Of a stretch of DNA of 63,300 nucleotides, positions 30,835 to 42,707 are shown in pieces (within the stretch, counting starts at the first letter, position 1; each line of letters opens with the position of its first letter). The translations under genes were made by a program, and so were the position numbers. Origin of the DNA: an uncultured Clostridia bacterium. Its GTDB lineage: Bacteria > Bacillota > Clostridia > TANB77 > CAG-508. Where the stretch lies: assembly GCA_944393485.1 (NCBI GenBank), contig CALYAJ010000001.1, positions 1-63,300 of the forward strand. Reading direction: 5' to 3'. The notes below the pieces were generated by a model, which saw only the letters and a list, made by a program, of their open reading frames with translations, made no database searches and was not told the origin of the DNA.

Positions 30835-32052
30835 TCAACCTATTTCTTTTTTTTCTTCTCTTTTGCTTCTTGAATATATTTTATCTGAAGTAGTACATGT
30901 ATTGCTTAAATTTCTCATTTTGCCTAATTCTACTAACTTATTTTTATAAAATTTTATAATATTATTATAATTTCTTTTTGCTTTTCTTAATTTTTCCATA
31001 TCTGCTTTTATAAATAAAGCTTGTTTTTCTATTTCATATTTTTCAAAATCGTCATCTTTAATTTTTTGTATTTTTTTATAGCTATTCCAAAACTCTTTAT
31101 ATTCTTCCCTATCTGATGGTTTGTCCCAATAAATTTTTGTAGAGAGTAATCTAATATTATAATCTTCTATAAGTTCCATTAATAAATTGTATGCATCATT
31201 GCTTTTCTTTTTTATTTTTGTAGTTACCATTATATGTCTTAAATCTTTTAATAATTTTATATAACATTGTTCTGCAACTACTAGAGGTAAACTATGTGTA
31301 AATAATTGTCTACTTATTCCTAATAGAATCATTCTTTTTTCTATTGAATCATTCATATCTAGTTTTCCTACTGTAAGTTTATCGAATTTCTCGTATTGAG
31401 AAATAATATTTTTATATGTATTTGTAGTATCTAATTTTATTTTTAATGGTAAAATATCTGCAATATATTCTTCTAACAAATCAAATATTTTATCATATAC
31501 TATATTTTTATCTTGATATGTTAAATTGTCTGCTAATTGTATAGAAAAATGTTTTAAAATACCTTTGTATAATTGTTCCATTTTAGTTATATAAAATTTT
31601 TCATATCTTTCTATATTCTTTATGTTTTCATTTTTAGCTGTTTTATAATCTAATTCTAATAAATATTTTTGCTTTCTATATTTATATTCTATATATTCTG
31701 TTTGTTTTAAATGTATTACTTCATAATAATTTGAAAGTGCATTTTTTTCAAAATCTGAAGCAGATCCATTTTTAACTTTTTTATAAATAGAATCCATTAT
31801 ATACTTATCTATTGATTCTAAATATAAAGTATATGCATCTTCATATTTTTTAGCTAAATTTTCTTTTTTATTGCCTTCTTCTTTTGTATTAGTATACACT
31901 TCAAAAGATTTTAATAAACTATTTCTTTTTATTGTAATCATTAATCCATTAAGCCCTAATTTAGTTGGAATTAGTAACTTACTTATAGTATTTGTTAATT
32001 TTGCGAAAAAATTTTTATTTGTGCTTACAACTCTTAGACTTCTTTGCTCCAT
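30835..32052 (-). CDS. hypothetical Lys/Glu/Tyr-rich helical protein (405 aa) in the phoH/pgpH slot
   Basis: Long ORF. The ATG at 32052 is preceded by AAAGGA. It has no P-loop, no HD motif and no TM segments. Confidence 0.65.
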   Translation of the reverse strand: MEQRSLRVVSTNKNFFAKLTNTISKLLIPTKLGLNGLMITIKRNSLLKSFEVYTNTKEEGNKKENLAKKYEDAYTLYLESIDKYIMDSIYKKVKNGSASDFEKNALSNYYEVIHLKQTEYIEYKYRKQKYLLELDYKTAKNENIKNIERYEKFYITKMEQLYKGILKHFSIQLADNLTYQDKNIVYDKIFDLLEEYIADILPLKIKLDTTNTYKNIISQYEKFDKLTVGKLDMNDSIEKRMILLGISRQLFTHSLPLVVAEQCYIKLLKDLRHIMVTTKIKKKSNDAYNLLMELIEDYNIRLLSTKIYWDKPSDREEYKEFWNSYKKIQKIKDDDFEKYEIEKQALFIKADMEKLRKAKRNYNNIIKFYKNKLVELGKMRNLSNTCTTSDKIYSRSKREEKKEIG

Positions 32053-32065
32053 GCTAATCATCCTT

Positions 32066-34756: not shown

Positions 34757-35590
34757 TTATTTTACATCTCTATATTTTCTATTACGTATAAATGTTACAA
34801 CCAAAACTATTGATAAAACTATAATTGCTATTGCAACTATACTTGTTCCAGTATAAGGTAACTTACCCGGTGCTGTAGTATCATCATCTTTAGAGTTATT
34901 ATCTTGGTTGTTGCTATTATTATTGTTGTTATCGTTGTTATTATCATTGTTATTATCGTTATTATTACCGTTATTATTATCTCCCGGATTCTCTGGATCT
35001 GGATTTTCTGGATCCGGATTTTCAGGATCTGGATTTTCTGTTCCTGGGTCTTCAGGATCTGGATTTTCTGTTCCTGGATCTTCTGGATCTGGATTCTCAG
35101 GATCTGGATCTTCTGTTGAATCTCCAACTATATTTATTGTAATTGTTTGTGCTGGTACATAGTAGTTTGAATCTGTTGCTTCCATACTAGCAACAAGAGT
35201 TTCTGGCATGCTTATTTGTGTTGTTGTATTGGCTTGTGCATCATCCTTTACTTTGAAAGTTATAACAAATACATCTGCATCTGTTATATCAGGTGCATTA
35301 GCAATAACTTCGATTTTATTATTTATTCCTAAATTTGCAAAATTTCCACTTGCTGTATTTGCACTTACAACTTCTAATATATTAGAATCATAATTATATT
35401 CTGTTTGGATACCATTGATTTTTTCACTACATGTTGCATGTAATGTAACTGTAAAAGTTTCTCCTGGTTTTACATTAGTAGTACTAGGTACTAATGTTGC
35501 TGATACATCTTCAGCTCTAGCAAATACTGAGCTAGTTCCAACCAAAGCCACAACTAATACTAATAACATTGTAATAATTTTACTTTTCAT
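34757..35590 (-). CDS. LPxTG cell-wall-anchored protein with one cohesin-like domain
   Basis: Signal peptide, then a roughly 140-aa cohesin-like module (KPGETFTVTL...YDSNILEVVS...VFVITFKVKDDA), a PENPDPEDPGT/NNND low-complexity stalk, and LPYTG plus a TM segment plus RNRKYRDVK. Confidence 0.65.
   Translation of the reverse strand: MKSKIITMLLVLVVALVGTSSVFARAEDVSATLVPSTTNVKPGETFTVTLHATCSEKINGIQTEYNYDSNILEVVSANTASGNFANLGINNKIEVIANAPDITDADVFVITFKVKDDAQANTTTQISMPETLVASMEATDSNYYVPAQTITINIVGDSTEDPDPENPDPEDPGTENPDPEDPGTENPDPENPDPENPDPENPGDNNNGNNNDNNNDNNNDNNNNNSNNQDNNSKDDDTTAPGKLPYTGTSIVAIAIIVLSIVLVVTFIRNRKYRDVK
34893..35115. repeat. coding tandem repeats (12-nt and 30-nt units)
   Basis: GGATCTGGATTTTC-type 12-mers, two copies of a 30-nt unit AGGATCTGGATTTTCTGTTCCTGGRTCTTC, and GTTATTATCRTT repeats. 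They encode the Pro/Glu/Asp/Asn stalk. Confidence 0.85.
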
Positions 35591-35604
35591 ATTATACCTC
35601 CATT

Positions 35605-38600
35605 TTATAAAGTACTTGTATTTCCTAATCTATATTTATTTATTTCTAAAATATCTTGGAAATCAGCCTTTCCATCATCATTTACATCTCCTGCAATTAA
35701 GTATGCACCTTGTAAACCATTTCCATTTAATCTGTATTTATTTATATTTAGAATATCTTGGAAATCTGCATCTCCGCTTCCATCTGTATCTCCTGTAACA
35801 ATAAGTATATATTCCTTATTATTACTTAATCTAATCTTATCACCTGTTGAAACAGTATTTGAAGAACTCATTTTATTTCCATTTTTGTTTATTACATCAT
35901 ATTGTAATTCACAGTCTAAATTATTTTTTAATGTATTTACAGATGTTTTTGGTGATATTCTAGAAATGTATAAAGTATCTTCGCTAACTCTATATTTACT
36001 AGATGTTACTACATCTGAGGCAGTTCTTATTTCAAAAGAAACTGTACTCTCATTTCCGAACTCATCTCTAGCTGTTAAAACATATTTTCCATTACCTGAA
36101 ATCGTATTACCATTTCTGTAATTAATTATTTCTTGTCCATTTTTTGTTAATATTACTTCTTTTAAGTTTTCATCAGTAATTGTAGGTGTTACTGGACCAT
36201 CATACACTTTATTATTTTCAACATTTGAAATTGTTGGTGGTGTTGTATCTGCTTCTGTTGTAATTGAAATCTGAAGTTCATTTCCTGCTATATCTGAAAC
36301 AGTAATTGTTTCTTGATCTCCTGCATTAAACGTTTTTGTTAACACTTTTTTATCTTCGCTTAAATCCCAGCCCCAACCAGATGGTTTTTCTACTTCTTCA
36401 TTCATTGTAATTGTTACTATTACTTTATTTCCATCTTGTTGTTTTGAAATTGTATATTGTGGAGCATCTTTATCTATCCAATTAACTGTAGCTATTGCTT
36501 GTCCTGTAAAGCCATATTCATCCATATATTCAAATGTAAATTCATCATTTTGCGTAAATGTATATGTATTACTTCCTGAATTATTTGTTATTGTTACATT
36601 TGCTCTATTAAAGCTAATTGTTGCAATTACATTTTGATTTGTTTTTTCTTTAATATTATAATCTATTGTTGCTTCTAATGGTTTTGCTACTGAAAGCATT
36701 GTTCCATCTGCATTTCCTCCAGAAATTGTTGCTGTTGCAATTTTATCTCCTAGTGTTGTTAAATTTACTACTATACTATTTCCATCTGGAGATAATGAAC
36801 AATTTGATAAATTAAAGTCTGCACTAGTATATACTTTACTTCCATTTTGTTTTGATGATTTAAATATTGCTGGTAATTCTACAGTCATTTCTCCTTGAGC
36901 ACTCTCTGCAGCAGTTCTTACCATTTTTTGTCTTTTTGCAGAAAATACATTTCTTATATTTAATGTTTCTAAAGAAGAAATATCATCAATCATATTATTG
37001 TCCATATATAAATCTGTTAAACTTGTCATTCTTGACATTGAGCTAACATCACTTACTCTGTTTCCAGAAAACTCTAATACTGTTACTGCTAATCTTGATA
37101 TAGGTTCAATACTATAAATTTTGTTGTTATTCATATATAAAGTTCTTAAAGCTGTTAAATTTGATAATACTGATATGTCTTCTATCTGGTTACTTGATAT
37201 ATCTAAAGTATTCAAACTTGTTAAATTGCTATATCCTGAAATATCTGTTATATTATTTCCAGATACATATAATTTTTGAAGTGGTGTAATATTTTTTATT
37301 CCTTCCACTTTGTCATCTGATAAGCCGTTATTTGAAATATTTAATTCTATTAACTCTATATCATCTTTTTCAGATATCCAATAATTTACTAAATCATTTA
37401 CAATATTTATATTTGTAATTCCAGTATTTGATAAATCTAAACTTTGTAATTCTGTCATTTGAAGTATTGCTGAATTATTATCTCCTACTGGTGAATTAGA
37501 AAGATTTAGGTTTGTAATCTTGGTGCATGATTTCAATTCATCTATTGTTGTAATTTTATTTTGTGCTAAATTTAAATTTTCAAGTTCTGAGAAACTTGCA
37601 AGTCCAGTTAAATCTCTAATATCCCCATTTGATAAATTCAATTCATCTACTTCTTTTATTATACTATGTTCTATATTTATAATTTTTGGAATTCTAGTTA
37701 TATATGTGTCCTCATCTAAAAGAGTTAATAAATGTTTATATATTGCTGCATCTAAGTTTTCATCAACAAATAATAATGAATCTATTGCTGAAGAAGATGA
37801 TGAAATTTCAAAATTAATAATACTTCCATCAGCATTTCCACCATGTAATGTAAGTGATAACATATCATCTTTTGTTTTGTTATAGTCAATAATTACATTA
37901 TAATTTCCTGGTGTTTGATATTCTGAAGCATTATTTAATGTAACTCCATTTACATCAAAACTTGCATTTTCAGAATAAACTATACTTCCACTCGTTTTAC
38001 TTAATTGGAAAATACTTGGCAAAATTATGTATTGATCAACTTCTGCTTCCTTCTTATATATTGGAAAATCTATTATTTGATCTTGTAAATATATACCTTT
38101 TGAATAACTTTCACCAGTTAATGGTGTTATATTATATATATGGTTTTGTGATAAATCTAGGTATTCTACACGTTGAGGTAAAGCTGCAAAAACTGATACA
38201 TCTGAAATCTCATTGTTTTTCAAACTTATCTCTGTTGCAGGCATATATTTATCTATAACTTGTACATCATCCACAGTTTTCCATTTTATAAAATAACTAA
38301 TATCAGAAATATTATTATCTTCCAAATTTAAATATTGTAAATTTGACATTTCATATATTCCAGATATACTGCTTATTGAATTTCCTTGCATATATAATTC
38401 TTTAAGTTCTGTTAATTTAGATAAAGATGAAAAAGAAATTTTATTTGTATATCTCATATCTAACATTTCCAAATTTGCAAGATATGGAACTGTTTCAGAG
38501 TCTACTCTATGTGTTTGGATTATTGGGCTTACACTTATACCTGTTAAGTTTCCTATGTTTAATCTTTTTAAATTTCCTAATTGAATTATACTAGAAATAT

Positions 38601-39267
38601 CAGTTATACCTGTTGATGAAATATTTAAATCCTCTAAAGTATCATGTGTTGAAATTTCATTTAATGTAGCTAAACTTCTATTGCTAGAAACATTTAATGT
38701 GATTAAAGAATTTAATAAATTAATTCCTTGTAAATTACTAATATTATTACTAGAAATATCCAATGTCTTTAAATTAACTAAATTATTTAAAAAAGATACA
38801 TTACTTATTCCAGTATTTGATAAATATAACTCTGTCAAATTAGTTTTATTAGATAATTCTGATAAATTGCTTACAGGATTATCATTTAAATTTAAATTTG
38901 TTAAATTATTTAAGCTAATTATTGGGCTTATATCAGATATATTATTTCTTGATAAATCTATACTATTTAAGTTAATAAATTTTTCTATTCCGGATAAGTC
39001 AGAAATATCTGAATTTCTTAAGTCCATTGATGTTATTCCATTTAATGTTTCTGTCGCTATTGTTATTGTTTTGGTACCATTATCAGAGCTCATAATTTCT
39101 TTTGATAAAACATTTTTTACTGCTTGATATAAATTATTGTCTTGAAATGTTATTTCTGTTTTTTCAATTGTTGCTGAATAAATAATTGCTGATAATGCTA
39201 AAAGAATAAAAATAATCAAGAATGAAAATATTATTCTTCTTATGTTCCTTCCTCTTCTATATTTCAT
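35605..39267 (-). CDS. 1220-aa surface protein: two internalin-like LRR blocks, Ig-like modules, C-terminal dockerin
   Basis: N-terminal signal/anchor. It contains many 22-aa LxxLxLxxNxIsDIS repeats in two blocks. The C-terminus GDTDGSGDADFQDILNINKYRL...GDVNDDGKADFQDILEINKYRL is a duplicated Ca-binding dockerin motif. Confidence 0.75.
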   Translation of the reverse strand: MKYRRGRNIRRIIFSFLIIFILLALSAIIYSATIEKTEITFQDNNLYQAVKNVLSKEIMSSDNGTKTITIATETLNGITSMDLRNSDISDLSGIEKFINLNSIDLSRNNISDISPIISLNNLTNLNLNDNPVSNLSELSNKTNLTELYLSNTGISNVSFLNNLVNLKTLDISSNNISNLQGINLLNSLITLNVSSNRSLATLNEISTHDTLEDLNISSTGITDISSIIQLGNLKRLNIGNLTGISVSPIIQTHRVDSETVPYLANLEMLDMRYTNKISFSSLSKLTELKELYMQGNSISSISGIYEMSNLQYLNLEDNNISDISYFIKWKTVDDVQVIDKYMPATEISLKNNEISDVSVFAALPQRVEYLDLSQNHIYNITPLTGESYSKGIYLQDQIIDFPIYKKEAEVDQYIILPSIFQLSKTSGSIVYSENASFDVNGVTLNNASEYQTPGNYNVIIDYNKTKDDMLSLTLHGGNADGSIINFEISSSSSAIDSLLFVDENLDAAIYKHLLTLLDEDTYITRIPKIINIEHSIIKEVDELNLSNGDIRDLTGLASFSELENLNLAQNKITTIDELKSCTKITNLNLSNSPVGDNNSAILQMTELQSLDLSNTGITNINIVNDLVNYWISEKDDIELIELNISNNGLSDDKVEGIKNITPLQKLYVSGNNITDISGYSNLTSLNTLDISSNQIEDISVLSNLTALRTLYMNNNKIYSIEPISRLAVTVLEFSGNRVSDVSSMSRMTSLTDLYMDNNMIDDISSLETLNIRNVFSAKRQKMVRTAAESAQGEMTVELPAIFKSSKQNGSKVYTSADFNLSNCSLSPDGNSIVVNLTTLGDKIATATISGGNADGTMLSVAKPLEATIDYNIKEKTNQNVIATISFNRANVTITNNSGSNTYTFTQNDEFTFEYMDEYGFTGQAIATVNWIDKDAPQYTISKQQDGNKVIVTITMNEEVEKPSGWGWDLSEDKKVLTKTFNAGDQETITVSDIAGNELQISITTEADTTPPTISNVENNKVYDGPVTPTITDENLKEVILTKNGQEIINYRNGNTISGNGKYVLTARDEFGNESTVSFEIRTASDVVTSSKYRVSEDTLYISRISPKTSVNTLKNNLDCELQYDVINKNGNKMSSSNTVSTGDKIRLSNNKEYILIVTGDTDGSGDADFQDILNINKYRLNGNGLQGAYLIAGDVNDDGKADFQDILEINKYRLGNTSTL

Positions 39268-39561
39268 TTGTTATCCCCCATTCTTTATCTATTGTAAACA
39301 TTACTTATATCTTACTATTTTTAACTTTTTTAGTCAATAAAATCTAATATATTTTTATATTACTTTTATGTTACTTATTTTCTACAATATTTTATTCATT
39401 TTTACAGAATTACTGTTTAATCATAAGATATTTTTTTGAAATTATTGTAAAATTTTTTTGTATTTTTTCCCTTTTGTATTTTTAACAACTCTGCTACTCT
39501 GTAAGGATGTGAGGTTTTTTAATTATTTATTTTAAAATTTTAATTACTGTATTTTTTTATA

Positions 39562-39590: not shown

Positions 39591-39687
39591 GTATTTATTA
39601 TTGGAAAATAAAGGTAATTGTCAAACCAACTTGAATTTTGCATATTCTTGCTGATTCATGAATTATTTAGTTTTAGGAGATGAAAAA

Positions 39688-40443
39688 ATGCTTAGTTTTG
39701 TGTTGTGTGATGATAATATAACTGTTTTAAATAAATTATCTCAAATGTTAGAAAATATTTTGATGCAATATGATTATGATACAAGTATTACTTATAAATG
39801 TACTAACGCCAATGATTTAATGAAATATATAGAACAACATACTGTTGATGTTCTATTTCTTGATATAAATTTAAAGAATAAATTATCGGGATTAGACATA
39901 GCAGAAAAAATTAGAGAAACTAATAAGGAAATGTATATTATTTTTACCACAGGACACCTTGAATATGCATTAGTTGCATATAAGTATAAAACTTTTGATT
40001 ACATTCCAAAGCCTTTTATTTCTGAAAGACTTGAATTAACTATTTCTAGATTATTTGACGATATAAAATCTAATACAGCAAAATTTATTAAAATCGGTAA
40101 TTCCCCAATTATAATTAAAGAAGAAGATATACTTTATATTAGAAAAGATAATATGAAGTCAATTTATCATACCCATTTTAATGATTATTCAGCATATATA
40201 CCTTTTAATAAAATTGAGGCTAAACTACCAGAAAATTTTATAAGATGTCATAAATCATATATAGTGAATATTGATATGATTGAACATATTGATATTAACA
40301 ATAATACAATATACCTTATGTTTAACAATATTTGTCCTATTGGTCCAAAATATAAAAACAATTTAATGGAGGTTTTAAATAATTATGAATATTTTTCAGA
40401 AAATTACAGAGGGCTTGATGAGCCCAAACGAAATGTTAACTAA
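39688..40443 (+). CDS. agrA: LytTR-family response regulator (AgrA-like)
   Basis: Receiver domain (VLCDDN...DVLFLDINL) plus a C-terminal LytTR domain (FIRCHKSYIVNI). The ATG at 39688 follows AGGAGA. Confidence 0.75.
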   Translation: MLSFVLCDDNITVLNKLSQMLENILMQYDYDTSITYKCTNANDLMKYIEQHTVDVLFLDINLKNKLSGLDIAEKIRETNKEMYIIFTTGHLEYALVAYKYKTFDYIPKPFISERLELTISRLFDDIKSNTAKFIKIGNSPIIIKEEDILYIRKDNMKSIYHTHFNDYSAYIPFNKIEAKLPENFIRCHKSYIVNIDMIEHIDINNNTIYLMFNNICPIGPKYKNNLMEVLNNYEYFSENYRGLDEPKRNVN

Positions 40444-41731
40444 TATATTGAGTATACCTTTCTTTCTAATTGAGGCATATATTGATATAAATTTATTTAT
40501 AACTCTTTTCGCTAAAAGTCCGTCTAAGAAAAATAAATATTTATGTATGTTAATATTAGTTTTGTCTAGTATTATAAGTAGATTCTTAATTCCTATACCT
40601 TATAATACTATATTTAATGTTTTCGCATTTGCTATATCTTATAAGATATTTTTTAATTCTAAAATTTTAGAATCATTTATTGGTGTTGCTATACAGTTTT
40701 TACTAACTGCTTTATTTGAGATGATTTCTTCGCAAATATATACATTATTTTTCAATGGAACATATTCTGAATTTGCAAATTATCCAATATATGCTGTTAT
40801 ATTTATGTTTATTGTATATTCTTGTCTATTTATAATGCTTAAATTATTTCAAAAGTTTAATATAAATATTACTTTATTCAAAAATATTAATAAAAAAGAT
40901 AGTATAGTTATATTAGCCACAATTGTTCTAGGCTTTATTACTGTATTCTTACAATTATATATTTCTGCATTTTATAATAATTTATTACCTACATTTGTTA
41001 TATTTATTAGTATTATTTGTTTAATAGCATATTTCTTTGTAAGTATGTTTAATATTGTAAAAACTAAACAATTAGAAATTGCAACTATTGATAATCACAA
41101 TTTACAATCATATAATGATAATTTAAAATCAATGTATGATAATATTCGTGCATTCAAACATGATTTTAATAATATTGTTCATGCAATTGGTGGATATGTA
41201 AGAGCAAAAGATATGAATGGACTTTCAAAATATTATAATTCTTTATTTGATGAATGTAGTAGTATTAATAATTTATCTGCGCTAAATCCTGAAACAGTAA
41301 ATAATCCTTCTATATATGCAATTCTTTTAGATAAATATAATAAAGCTGAGAAGAAAAATATAAAAATGGAACTTGGTGTATATATTGATTTAAACACTTT
41401 AAATGCTGATATTTATGAGATTTGTAGGATTCTTGGAATATTATTAGATAATAGTTTAGAAGCTGCACAAGAATGTGATAAAAAATATATTAATATTAGA
41501 TTTTTAATGGATAATAGAAAAAATAGACAATTAATTATTATAGAAAATACATATAAAGATAAAAATGTAGATACAATAAAAATATTTGAAAAATCATATT
41601 CTACTAAGCCACATAATACTGGATTAGGTTTATGGGAAGTTAACAAAATATTAAATAAACATTCAAACCTTGCAATATTTACTAGTAAAAATGATGAATA
41701 TTTTTCGCAACAATTAGAAATATATTTATAA
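40385..41731 (+). CDS. agrC: AgrC-like sensor histidine kinase (HPK10-type)
   Basis: About 6 N-terminal TM segments, H-box FKHDFNNIV, N-box LLDNSLEAA and G-box STKPHNTGLGLWEV. The start is uncertain (40385, 40418 or 40433). Confidence 0.75.
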   Translation: MNIFQKITEGLMSPNEMLTNILSIPFFLIEAYIDINLFITLFAKSPSKKNKYLCMLILVLSSIISRFLIPIPYNTIFNVFAFAISYKIFFNSKILESFIGVAIQFLLTALFEMISSQIYTLFFNGTYSEFANYPIYAVIFMFIVYSCLFIMLKLFQKFNINITLFKNINKKDSIVILATIVLGFITVFLQLYISAFYNNLLPTFVIFISIICLIAYFFVSMFNIVKTKQLEIATIDNHNLQSYNDNLKSMYDNIRAFKHDFNNIVHAIGGYVRAKDMNGLSKYYNSLFDECSSINNLSALNPETVNNPSIYAILLDKYNKAEKKNIKMELGVYIDLNTLNADIYEICRILGILLDNSLEAAQECDKKYINIRFLMDNRKNRQLIIIENTYKDKNVDTIKIFEKSYSTKPHNTGLGLWEVNKILNKHSNLAIFTSKNDEYFSQQLEIYL

Positions 41732-41830
41732 CAAAAACAAAAGCGGACATTAATAACTTTGTTGCTATCTATAATTTTGTAAAGTCCGCATCTTTGTTTG
41801 TATGCCAAAATTACTTTGTAATTAAATTTA

Positions 41831-41871
41831 TTTATAATTAGGGAAGTTCTTTGAACTTCCCTAATTATAAA
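41831..41871. terminator. 18-bp perfect hairpin between the convergent agr transcription units
   Basis: TTTATAATTAGGGAAGTT/AACTTCCCTAATTATAAA with a 5-nt loop. Confidence 0.65.
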
Positions 41872-41872
41872 T

Positions 41873-41905
41873 AAAATACCTAATTTCTTAGGTATTTTTC
41901 TTTTG
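41873..41905. terminator. second bidirectional terminator hairpin
   Basis: AAAATACCTAA/TTAGGTATTTT with the 4-nt loop TTTC, followed by TCTTTTGTT on the plus strand. Confidence 0.7.
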
Positions 41906-41933
41906 TTAGTCGTTTAATTAGTTTAGAATACGC

Positions 41934-42053
41934 TTAGTCCCTCTTAATCATACTGTCTGGTATCTTTGGTTGATGTATAATTCCAAATATTACACATGCA
42001 GTATTTGATGATTTAGCATATTTTTCAGCTAATCTTGCTAAGAACTTTAACAT
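41934..42053 (-). CDS. agrD: AgrD autoinducing-peptide precursor (39 aa), not in the ORF track
   Basis: Encodes MLKFLARLAEKYAKSSNTACVIFGIIHQPKIPDSMIKRD. GGGAGG lies 7 nt upstream of the ATG, which is 42 nt downstream of the agrB stop. It has an amphipathic leader, a single Cys followed by hydrophobic residues, and a Pro-containing charged tail. Confidence 0.75.
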   Translation of the reverse strand: MLKFLARLAEKYAKSSNTACVIFGIIHQPKIPDSMIKRD

Positions 42054-42095
42054 TGCTATTCCTCCCTTTTTTTATATATAGTAAGAGTTTAAAAC

Positions 42096-42707
42096 TCAAT
42101 TACTACCATAAACTTCATAACCATATTTGTTTTTAGTAATCTTATAAGCTGTTTTTGTTAAGGTACATGTTTGAAATATAATTCCAAGAATTATCAAATT
42201 AGAGATTACTTTATATGGTATAAATATTGCAATTATTAATTCAATTCCTGCAATTACAAATGACCATATTTTTCTTTTTCTTCTTTCTTTTTTTTGAAGA
42301 ATTGGAACATTTTCTGTATCTGCAGGTGCATATTTATTTATCATCCAAAAACTAAATATAAATGTAAATGCTATAGCTATATATCTTACTTCATCACTTA
42401 TATTAATTATACTTGCTAAATATGGAGTCCCTATATATAAAAGATTTGTAACTATTATACAGCCTAAATGTGTATGTAAATGAAAACCACCGGAAAATGT
42501 TCTATATGGTAGAATAATTAAAAAAGAAATTAAAGTAAGACCAACCATGTGAAATAAAATTGCTAAAATTAATGTAATAAAAAATTTTGGAACTTCTCCA
42601 ATCAATAATTGTAATCCATAATTTATTTCATCAGCTTTGCTCTCATCTACTTCATCCACTGATTCTATAATTTTTTTAGTTAATGAATTACAAATTGCTT
42701 CTATCAT
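42096..42707 (-). CDS. agrB: AgrB accessory gene regulator B (AIP-processing membrane peptidase)
   Basis: 203 aa and polytopic. INYGLQLLIGEVPKF...PYRTFSGGFHLHTHLGC contains the conserved His/Cys region of AgrB. Confidence 0.85.
   Translation of the reverse strand: MIEAICNSLTKKIIESVDEVDESKADEINYGLQLLIGEVPKFFITLILAILFHMVGLTLISFLIILPYRTFSGGFHLHTHLGCIIVTNLLYIGTPYLASIINISDEVRYIAIAFTFIFSFWMINKYAPADTENVPILQKKERRKRKIWSFVIAGIELIIAIFIPYKVISNLIILGIIFQTCTLTKTAYKITKNKYGYEVYGSN

Follow-up and report, generated by a model that had tools for sequence, protein, structure and literature searches.

How a very large secreted protein that has no LPXTG motif of its own might be held at the surface of the cell that makes it is the question raised by two adjacent genes of an uncultured gut Clostridia bacterium. 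The window analyzed here, 63,300 nucleotides of contig CALYAJ010000001.1 (assembly GCA_944393485.1), contains a gene for a 1220-residue protein with leucine-rich repeats (LRRs) and, directly downstream, a gene for a 277-residue protein. The original prediction, made from the sequence by itself, was that the smaller protein carries a cohesin anchored in the cell wall and would display the larger one, which ends in a dockerin, non-covalently on the surface. Following up this prediction with profile searches, structural models and a comparison of loci across species, we find it highly likely that the two genes are one operon encoding a non-covalent surface-display pair.

One operon for two proteins

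The gene boundaries, the protein sizes, the 14-nt gap and the C-terminal sequence given in the original prediction are all correct, with both genes on the minus strand. No terminator-like site was detected between the two genes on the coding strand and the gap is only 14 nt, so that the genes make up a compact bicistronic unit. The hairpin that follows the second gene folds with a ΔG of -17.7 kcal/mol (z -5.9), and 0 of 200 shuffled sequences fold as well. With a ribosome-binding site in the gap and this single strong terminator after the second gene, the LRR gene and the cohesin gene form one operon. The same context is found on five metagenome contigs that encode an identical protein pair. 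A scan for promoters was uninformative in this AT-rich region (the G+C content of the window is about 27%): 36 consensus matches were obtained versus 44 expected from shuffled sequences, that is, no enrichment.

The small protein: a cohesin with the features of a sortase substrate

The Pfam Cohesin model (PF00963) matches residues 34-144 of the small protein with 42.1 bits, against a cutoff of 24.1 bits (E 1.2e-10; model positions 5-130 of 139). When the PDB was searched with the sequence of this protein, the best E-value was 0.47, which is insignificant. The AlphaFold2 (AF2) model, built from 43 homologues, is all beta over residues 30-155, with a predicted local distance difference test score (pLDDT) of 92-98, and the top 45 Foldseek matches to it in the PDB are all cohesins. 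The best among these is the non-cellulosomal cohesin of the Clostridium perfringens GH33 protein, 2vo8 (template-modeling (TM) score 0.76 relative to the target, root-mean-square deviation (rmsd) 2.8 Å), followed by type-I cohesins at TM-scores of 0.6-0.7, and only at ranks 43-45 by chains of ScaE (0.40-0.45). Judged by this model, the module is a cohesin, a jelly-roll beta-sandwich that can be superposed on solved cohesins, and the fold on which the original prediction hinged is thus recovered.

The remainder of the protein is laid out as had been described: signal peptide, cohesin, acidic stalk rich in proline and asparagine, LPYTG, transmembrane segment and basic tail. The N-terminus consists of MKSK, a hydrophobic core and ARA; the 85-residue stalk comprises 17 D, 8 E, 27 N and 17 P, and no R; and after LPYTG come 19 hydrophobic residues and then the tail IRNRKYRDVK. 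In the AF2 model, residues 165-253 are disordered and residues 251-274 helical. Most of the 47 homologues share this architecture, namely, a signal peptide, a cohesin, a low-complexity linker, an LPxTG-type motif, a transmembrane segment and a basic tail. With an LPXTG motif, a hydrophobic segment and a positively charged tail behind an N-terminal signal peptide, the small protein has the composition of a sortase substrate and is predicted to be one.

The large protein: a dockerin behind a beta module without structural matches

The profile search with Dockerin_1 (PF00404), which the original prediction had proposed together with that for Cohesin, places the C-terminus of the LRR protein just below the gathering cutoff (20.5 vs 22.9 bits, E 5.5e-4, model positions 2-55 of 57), with sibling dockerins passing. 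The best sequence match in the PDB, spanning both segments of the domain, is the C. thermocellum type-I dockerin 3ul4_B (E 1.9e-4). The signature is duplicated, as the original prediction had recognized: the two 24-residue segments are identical at 16 of 24 positions, and the calcium-ligand positions 1, 3, 5, 9 and 12 are occupied by D, D, S, D and D in the first segment and by D, N, D, D and D in the second, so that both loops offer oxygen ligands at all five positions, as is the rule for type-I dockerins. The AF2 model of the last 140 residues, built from 28 family sequences (mean pLDDT 96, predicted TM-score (pTM) 0.89), has three helices (query positions 89-101, 107-113 and 123-133) behind a beta module. 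The top 20 Foldseek matches to this model in the PDB are all dockerins (rmsd 1.4-3.0 Å, and 1.4-2.4 Å for superposition on type-I dockerins), headed by 2ccl_B (TM-score 0.82, rmsd 1.4 Å), 3ul4_B (0.82), 2vn6_B and 4uyp_B, mostly type-I dockerins that were studied for dual binding. On the strength of the model, the C-terminal 64 residues adopt a type-I-like dockerin fold.

Directly before the dockerin lies an all-beta module, called X-like here, that is modeled with high confidence (pLDDT 97-98). It is retained in 12 of 13 sibling cargo proteins and across the top 150 representative matches of the family search described below. Foldseek returned no confident structural match for it in the PDB: the X modules of type II and type III X-dockerins were not matched, and none of the top 50 matches of the whole unit is a chain of a type II or type III X-dockerin.

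The head of the protein consists of two blocks of internalin-type repeats of 22 residues, in agreement with the first description of this gene. Pfam detects 13 LRR_4 stretches (E 3e-56), the best LRR_4/LRR_8 stretches being at residues 663-717, and a motif scan found 16 repeats in two blocks (residues 78-388 and 562-771) with a dominant spacing of 22 residues. The relatives of solved structure that come closest are 5il7, a Roco-type LRR protein from a bacterium (E 2e-42), and internalin A of Listeria (E 4e-38). The NCBIfam internalin_A model matches residues 40-400 partially, and further NCBIfam matches cover residues 536-770. The class 1 internalin models (NF033189, NF033188) reach 163.6 bits against a cutoff of 1600 bits, in the LRR region only, which suggests that the protein is not a class 1 internalin and that the 22-residue LRR type is all that the two have in common. 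The Pfam scan of the LRR protein revealed no glycoside hydrolase, as had been stated, nor any other enzyme domain.

Between the head and the X-like module, the immunoglobulin (Ig)-like stalk offers a clue to how such proteins are built. Its residues 866-996 (36283-36672) are 33-43% identical, in tblastn comparisons, to the corresponding region of cargo proteins with NPCBM and F5_F8_type_C domains (loci L006, L013, L014, L016, L017, L021 and L025). The stalk being common to such unrelated cargos, different heads appear to ride on one C-terminal delivery unit, which points to shuffling of heads onto a common tail of stalk, X module and dockerin. All features are listed in Table 1.

Table 1. Features of the cargo-anchor locus and of the adjoining quorum-sensing genes (window positions; aa, amino acid residues)
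Feature	Positions	Strand	Basis
Gene 1: secreted LRR protein, 1220 aa, with C-terminal X module and dockerin (cargo)	35605..39267	-	open reading frame (ORF), Pfam
Putative signal peptide or signal anchor, aa 1-32: basic n-region KYRRGRNIRR, hydrophobic core, ...IYSA|T	39172..39267	-	translation
LRR block 1 and Ig-like inter-repeat region, aa ~40-500, internalin-type 22-residue repeats	37768..39150	-	NCBIfam, spacing, PDB
LRR block 2 and second inter-repeat-like region, aa ~536-860	36688..37662	-	Pfam, NCBIfam, motif scan
Ig-like stalk common to unrelated cargo proteins, aa 866-1074	36046..36672	-	tblastn
X-like beta module directly before dockerin, aa ~1075-1156	35800..36045	-	conservation, AF2
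Dockerin, aa 1157-1220: two calcium-loop-plus-helix segments, GDTDGSGDADFQDILNINKYRL and GDVNDDGKADFQDILEINKYRL	35608..35799	-	Pfam, PDB, AF2, Foldseek
Intergenic spacer, 14 nt, with GGAGG as ribosome-binding site, 8 nt upstream of the cohesin ATG	35591..35604	-	sequence read
Gene 2: cohesin-LPYTG anchor protein, 277 aa	34757..35590	-	ORF, Pfam Cohesin above cutoff, 47 homologues
Predicted signal peptide, aa 1-26, ...SSVFARA|ED	35513..35590	-	translation; model helix aa 2-17; kept in homologues
Cohesin module, aa 28-158	35117..35509	-	Pfam, AF2, Foldseek
Disordered acidic Pro/Asn-rich stalk, aa 161-243	34862..35110	-	composition; pLDDT <50
LPYTG, predicted sortase recognition motif, aa 244-248	34847..34861	-	LPxTG-type motif at matching place in most homologues
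Hydrophobic transmembrane segment and basic tail, aa 249-277	34760..34846	-	sequence; model helix aa 251-274
Intrinsic terminator: 16-bp hairpin and U-run, beginning 13 nt past the cohesin stop codon	34707..34743	-	RNA fold
Weak candidate sigma-70-type promoter TTGACA-16-AATAAT, ~330 nt upstream of gene 1	39597..39624	-	consensus scan, 11/12 matches
LytTR response regulator	39658-40443	+	
GHKL histidine kinase	40385-41731	+	
AgrD-like ORF, 39 aa, MLKFLARLAEKYAKSSNTACVIFGIIHQPKIPDSMIKRD	between 41731 and 42096	-	
AgrB	42096-42707	-	

Conserved pairing of cargo and anchor genes

When an alignment of the cohesin was scanned against one genome per species (GTDB), 25 loci were recovered, 24 of them in metagenome-assembled genomes of uncultured gut Clostridia and related Firmicutes (from human, rabbit, sheep, goat, mouse and chicken) and the weakest in the cultured Ruminococcus albus. 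A dockerin-bearing gene directly adjoins the cohesin gene in 19 of these 25 loci, lying upstream by 3-77 nt as a rule and by 161 nt in L031; in another, L024, it lies 3 kb away. The core relatives (L012-L023 and L025) all have a dockerin gene beside the cohesin gene. The cargos themselves are not related to each other: internalin-type LRR proteins (L019, L020), BspA-type LRR proteins with Big_3 domains (L018, L023), NPCBM proteins with F5_F8_type_C domains (L006, L013 and others), and transglutaminase-like (L015), heparinase II/III-like (L010) and lysozyme (L026) proteins. The adjacency of cohesin-LPxTG and dockerin genes in distant species, whatever the cargo, is what would be predicted for a cognate anchor-cargo pair. 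Pfam reports dockerins above the cutoff in seven of the eight sibling cargos scanned (25-39 bits) and no Dockerin_1 match in the L013 cargo; the signature GDxNxDGxxDxxDILxINK[HY]RL...GDVNxDGKxDxxDILQINK[YF]RLGK is common to all sibling cargos.

Approached from the dockerin side, the picture is similar. With the 140-residue X-dockerin unit as query, an index-free search retrieved 522 of 1.84 billion cluster representatives at E <= 1e-10, nearly always with the unit at the extreme C-terminus, where a word-indexed homology search had yielded only 3 matches. Among 56 sampled representatives, 41 have a Pfam dockerin match at E <= 1e-5, 26 carry BspA-type LRR_5 and 10 internalin-type LRR_4 repeats, and GH5, M14, C1, M60, BNR and SLH domains each occur in a single case. 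Two of the three loci that were informative, both with internalin-type LRR/X-dockerin genes, have a family cohesin gene no more than about 20 nt downstream (family hidden Markov model E 5e-73 and 1e-46); in the third, an SLH-bearing X-dockerin gene, no family cohesin gene follows, and one further contig was too short to be informative.

Several relatives show instructive variants of this layout. In L029 (282-5023) and L032 (6793-9275), the gene directly upstream of the family cohesin gene encodes a sortase (Pfam PF04203, E ~4e-18); in L029, the sortase and cohesin-LPQTG genes are followed by one for a 1095-residue protein with an N-terminal dockerin (residues 122-185), not a C-terminal one. 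In L037 (4422-8909), the cohesin protein P0028 has the form of an adaptor, with a signal peptide, a cohesin, a Big_3 domain and a dockerin but no LPxTG, and its gene lies directly downstream of that for a 1183-residue beta-helix/dockerin cargo, an arrangement that implies probable two-tier assemblies in some relatives. In L027 (42-8639), one cohesin gene is preceded by three consecutive genes whose dockerins are of another subtype (DLLKLRRYIA...), a layout of several cargos to one anchor.

A proposed mechanism and its weak points

The following sequence of events would account for these features. Both products would be exported via Sec signal peptides, after which a sortase would cut the small protein at LPYTG and join it to peptidoglycan, with the stalk of some 85 acidic, proline- and asparagine-rich residues crossing the wall and presenting the single cohesin outside. 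The 1220-residue protein would contribute two internalin-type LRR domains, the Ig-like stalk and a rigid terminal unit of X module and dockerin, and its calcium-loaded dockerin would dock in the cohesin, possibly in either of two orientations. The LRR adhesin, held in this manner at the cell surface, would most likely have a gut protein or glycoprotein as its ligand, whether from the host, from mucus or from another microbe. If the anchoring complexes of X-dockerin and cohesin from Ruminococcus are a guide (PMC7456326), the rigid X-dockerin unit (pTM 0.89) may make the link stiffer under shear.

The Pfam scores, two high-confidence models and the pairing in other species put the features of the two proteins well beyond chance, and it is the conserved pairing of the genes that suggests binding of this dockerin by this cohesin. 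Several observations, nevertheless, weigh against the mechanism. The cleavage of the signal peptide of the LRR protein is an assumption; the dockerin in the window scores under the Pfam gathering cutoff; and no sortase gene was found in the 63-kb window. At one locus, L043, an X-dockerin gene has no adjoining cohesin gene; pairing is therefore dispensable in some cases, and anchors may be promiscuous or common to several cargos. The identity matrices of cohesins and dockerins do correlate across loci (Mantel r 0.58, p 2e-4), yet we do not count this in favor of specificity because it is inseparable from shared ancestry.

One anchor for one cargo?

The alternative that survives best, a serious possibility although not the one we favor, accepts the docking but doubts its exclusiveness: the cohesin-LPYTG protein would serve several X-dockerin proteins encoded elsewhere, or the dockerin of the LRR protein would prefer another cohesin, with adjacency reflecting co-regulation and not an exclusive pair. 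The abundance of the X-dockerin dyad, the unpaired gene of L043 and the layout of L027, where a single cohesin gene follows three dockerin genes, all fit such sharing, as do Ruminococcus bromii Sca2 and Limousia cSca5, each of which binds many dockerins (PMC4611034, PMC12997984), and the near-invariance of the NK-RL helix motif across the family. Pulling the other way, the window contains exactly one cohesin and one dockerin, no second cohesin, dockerin or LPXTG protein being detected in its 63 kb, and adjacency is the rule in the core family. Moreover, sharing of anchors would extend the display mechanism proposed above and does not exclude it.

Putative specificity residues bear on the same question. 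At dockerin positions 10/11, the two segments in the window both have FQ, and the segments are identical to each other at these positions in 62 of 124 family dockerins, a near-symmetry that points to a dual mode of binding like that of type-I dockerins. Across loci, the same positions vary (FQ, FD, IQ, LQ, LK, FK, IR, IK), which suggests that specificities are diverging and weighs against shared anchors. On the cohesin side, the loop at residues 132-134 (35189-35197) is ASM in the window, whereas an acidic D[ST]D is found in relatives; in the dockerin, RLNG and RLGN take the place of the RL[GN]K of relatives. The lysine of RL[GN]K is missing only in the lineage of the window and L012 and in L041, and the cohesins of these loci also lack the D[ST]D loop; in L040 and L037, the loop is absent and the dockerin lysine retained. 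The parallel losses in the window/L012 lineage and, independently, in L041 are a possible compensatory change and, together with the variation at positions 10/11, hint weakly at pair-specific recognition.

A different role for the dockerin, binding in trans, appears improbable. Under this scenario, the LRR protein would be held in the membrane by an uncleaved signal anchor, and its dockerin would bind cohesins on neighboring cells or in the same wall, resulting in aggregation or biofilm cohesion. The strongly basic n-region and the hydrophobic stretch of about 20 residues could indeed serve as a signal anchor, and an agr-type quorum-sensing locus is divergently transcribed next door. However, YSA|T, which comes after the hydrophobic core, is a plausible site for signal peptidase, the signal peptides of sibling cargos are ordinary ones, and the agr adjacency is lineage-specific, being absent beside the orthologous pair in L020. 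Finally, that the two proteins are chance neighbors without functional coupling, their generic beta-sandwich and EF-hand-like domains having other roles such as carbohydrate or calcium binding, might seem to be favored by the subthreshold dockerin score and the insignificant PDB sequence search with the cohesin protein, but is very improbable and strongly disfavored, given that the confident fold matches in the PDB are cohesins and dockerins only, that unrelated cargos are paired in this way at 19 of 25 species-level loci, and that sibling dockerins pass the Pfam cutoff.

Beyond the single pair, a wider generalization can be put forward, tentatively and as a possibility that we regard as doubtful. 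The pair would be an instance of a widespread, undescribed system of "cargo plus private anchor" cassettes in uncultured Clostridia of the human and animal gut. The Ig-like stalk, the new X module and the symmetric INK[HY]RL-type dockerin would be fused to many heads, mostly BspA-type and internalin-type LRR adhesins, and each cargo gene would be accompanied by its own gene for a sortase-anchored cohesin, with co-diversifying specificity residues and several orthogonal display channels coexisting. If it exists, such a cassette system would be a natural plug-and-play toolkit for adhesin display, distinct from the enzyme-assembling cellulosomes.

Relation to known cohesin-dockerin systems

A close parallel is found in the gene cluster of R. 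flavefaciens (scaC-scaA-scaB-cttA-scaE), where CttA and ScaE form a type III X-dockerin/cohesin complex (PDB 4IU2/4IU3; PMC2930009, PMC4081043), ScaE binding the dockerins of both CttA and ScaB (PMC2930009, PMC4081043). There, as here, the gene for an adhesin that ends in an X module and a dockerin lies directly upstream of the gene for a sortase-anchored LPXTG protein with a single cohesin, and the CttA-ScaE complex attaches to the wall a binding protein that is not an enzyme (PMC2930009, PMC4081043). Anchoring complexes of X-dockerin and cohesin from Ruminococcus are mechanostable adhesion devices (PMC7456326). Unlike CttA, the LRR protein has a double internalin-type LRR head in place of carbohydrate-binding modules (CBMs), a type-I-like dockerin and an X module without a match to that of CttA; no other scaffoldin genes lie nearby; and the compact cohesin is nearer to type-I and C. 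perfringens cohesins (TM-score 0.64-0.76) than to ScaE (0.40-0.45). The module subtypes being different, the pair in the window is an analogue of CttA-ScaE, not an orthologue.

Other systems share individual elements. Sca2, the 534-residue anchor of the R. bromii amylosome, has a cohesin and a C-terminal sortase signal (PMC4611034); in a microarray assay, its cohesin bound the dockerins of a "2x LRR" protein (CBL14720.1) and of peptidases (PMC4611034), and its authors proposed it as a general mechanism of surface anchoring (PMC4611034). In contrast to the pair in the window, Sca2 serves many dockerin proteins, including amylases, in a cultured starch specialist, and one-to-one adjacency was not reported for it. 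Among the dockerin proteins of R. flavefaciens FD-1 are 28 LRR modules as well as transglutaminase-like modules (PMC2930009). The genes for ClcC and ClcD of Cellulosilyticum lentocellum, with one cohesin and one dockerin, respectively, belong to a single operon in which about 40 bp separate them and both have a ribosome-binding site (PMC13487519); their heterodimer was shown experimentally (PMC13487519). Here, too, a single-cohesin gene adjoins a single-dockerin gene, but ClcC has a CBM3 and an X2 module and no wall anchor, ClcD is a GH5 cellulase, and the purpose is cellulose targeting. In gut Clostridia, too, cohesin-dockerin pairs are used outside cellulose degradation, as in C. perfringens and in Limousia pullorum, whose "mucinolysome" anchor cSca5 begins with a cohesin and carries an LPxTG at its C-terminus (PMC12997984). 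What is assembled in those systems are glycoside hydrolases, in the case of Limousia on scaffoldins with several cohesins, whereas the pair in the window has an LRR adhesin and one cohesin. From Listeria class 1 internalins of the InlA type, the LRR protein shares the succession of 22-residue LRRs and an Ig-like inter-repeat region, but where internalins have their own LPXTG or GW anchor, it would delegate anchoring to the separate cohesin protein.

Single cohesins that are anchored by sortase and bind the dockerins of proteins other than enzymes, among them LRR proteins, have thus already been described (PMC4611034, PMC2930009, PMC12997984), and the display principle is less novel than the original prediction implied. 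Every element has a precedent; it is the family itself that is new, with its divergent cohesin-LPxTG anchor, large group of X-dockerins with an unmatched X module, recurrent cargo-anchor adjacency and LRR-dominated cargo, in uncultured gut Clostridia of low G+C content. The principle being established by ScaE, Sca2, cSca5 and ClcC/ClcD, the gain is in breadth and not in concept: uncultured, non-cellulolytic gut Clostridia appear to use cohesin-dockerin docking routinely for mounting LRR adhesins on the wall. Such docking would explain the surface binding of large LRR proteins that lack LPXTG, SLH or GW anchors, and it helps to annotate hundreds of "hypothetical" metagenome proteins. The LRR/X-dockerin proteins are candidate colonization factors in organisms that still resist cultivation, and compact natural cohesin/X-dockerin pairs would be usable as parts for surface display.

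Neighboring genes

A complete agr-type quorum-sensing locus (39658-42707) lies beside the pair, its response-regulator gene divergent from the LRR gene across an intergenic region of 390 bp. This adjacency is kept in L001, L002 and L012; as a regulator of the pair, the agr locus was not adopted because the adjacency is lineage-specific. Within the 390-bp region, an imperfect 23-nt direct repeat (39300-39322 and 39359-39381) has copies that are 83% identical and 59 nt apart. This repeat could be an operator; a LytTR-type operator was considered and rejected, this single imperfect repeat with its atypical spacing being the only candidate. No Rfam family reached its gathering score in a scan of the window (1-63300). 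Farther from the pair, a lysine-rich protein of 408 residues without a Pfam match is encoded on the minus strand (30835-32061) between yqfD and ybeY, the place usually taken by phoH in related Firmicutes.

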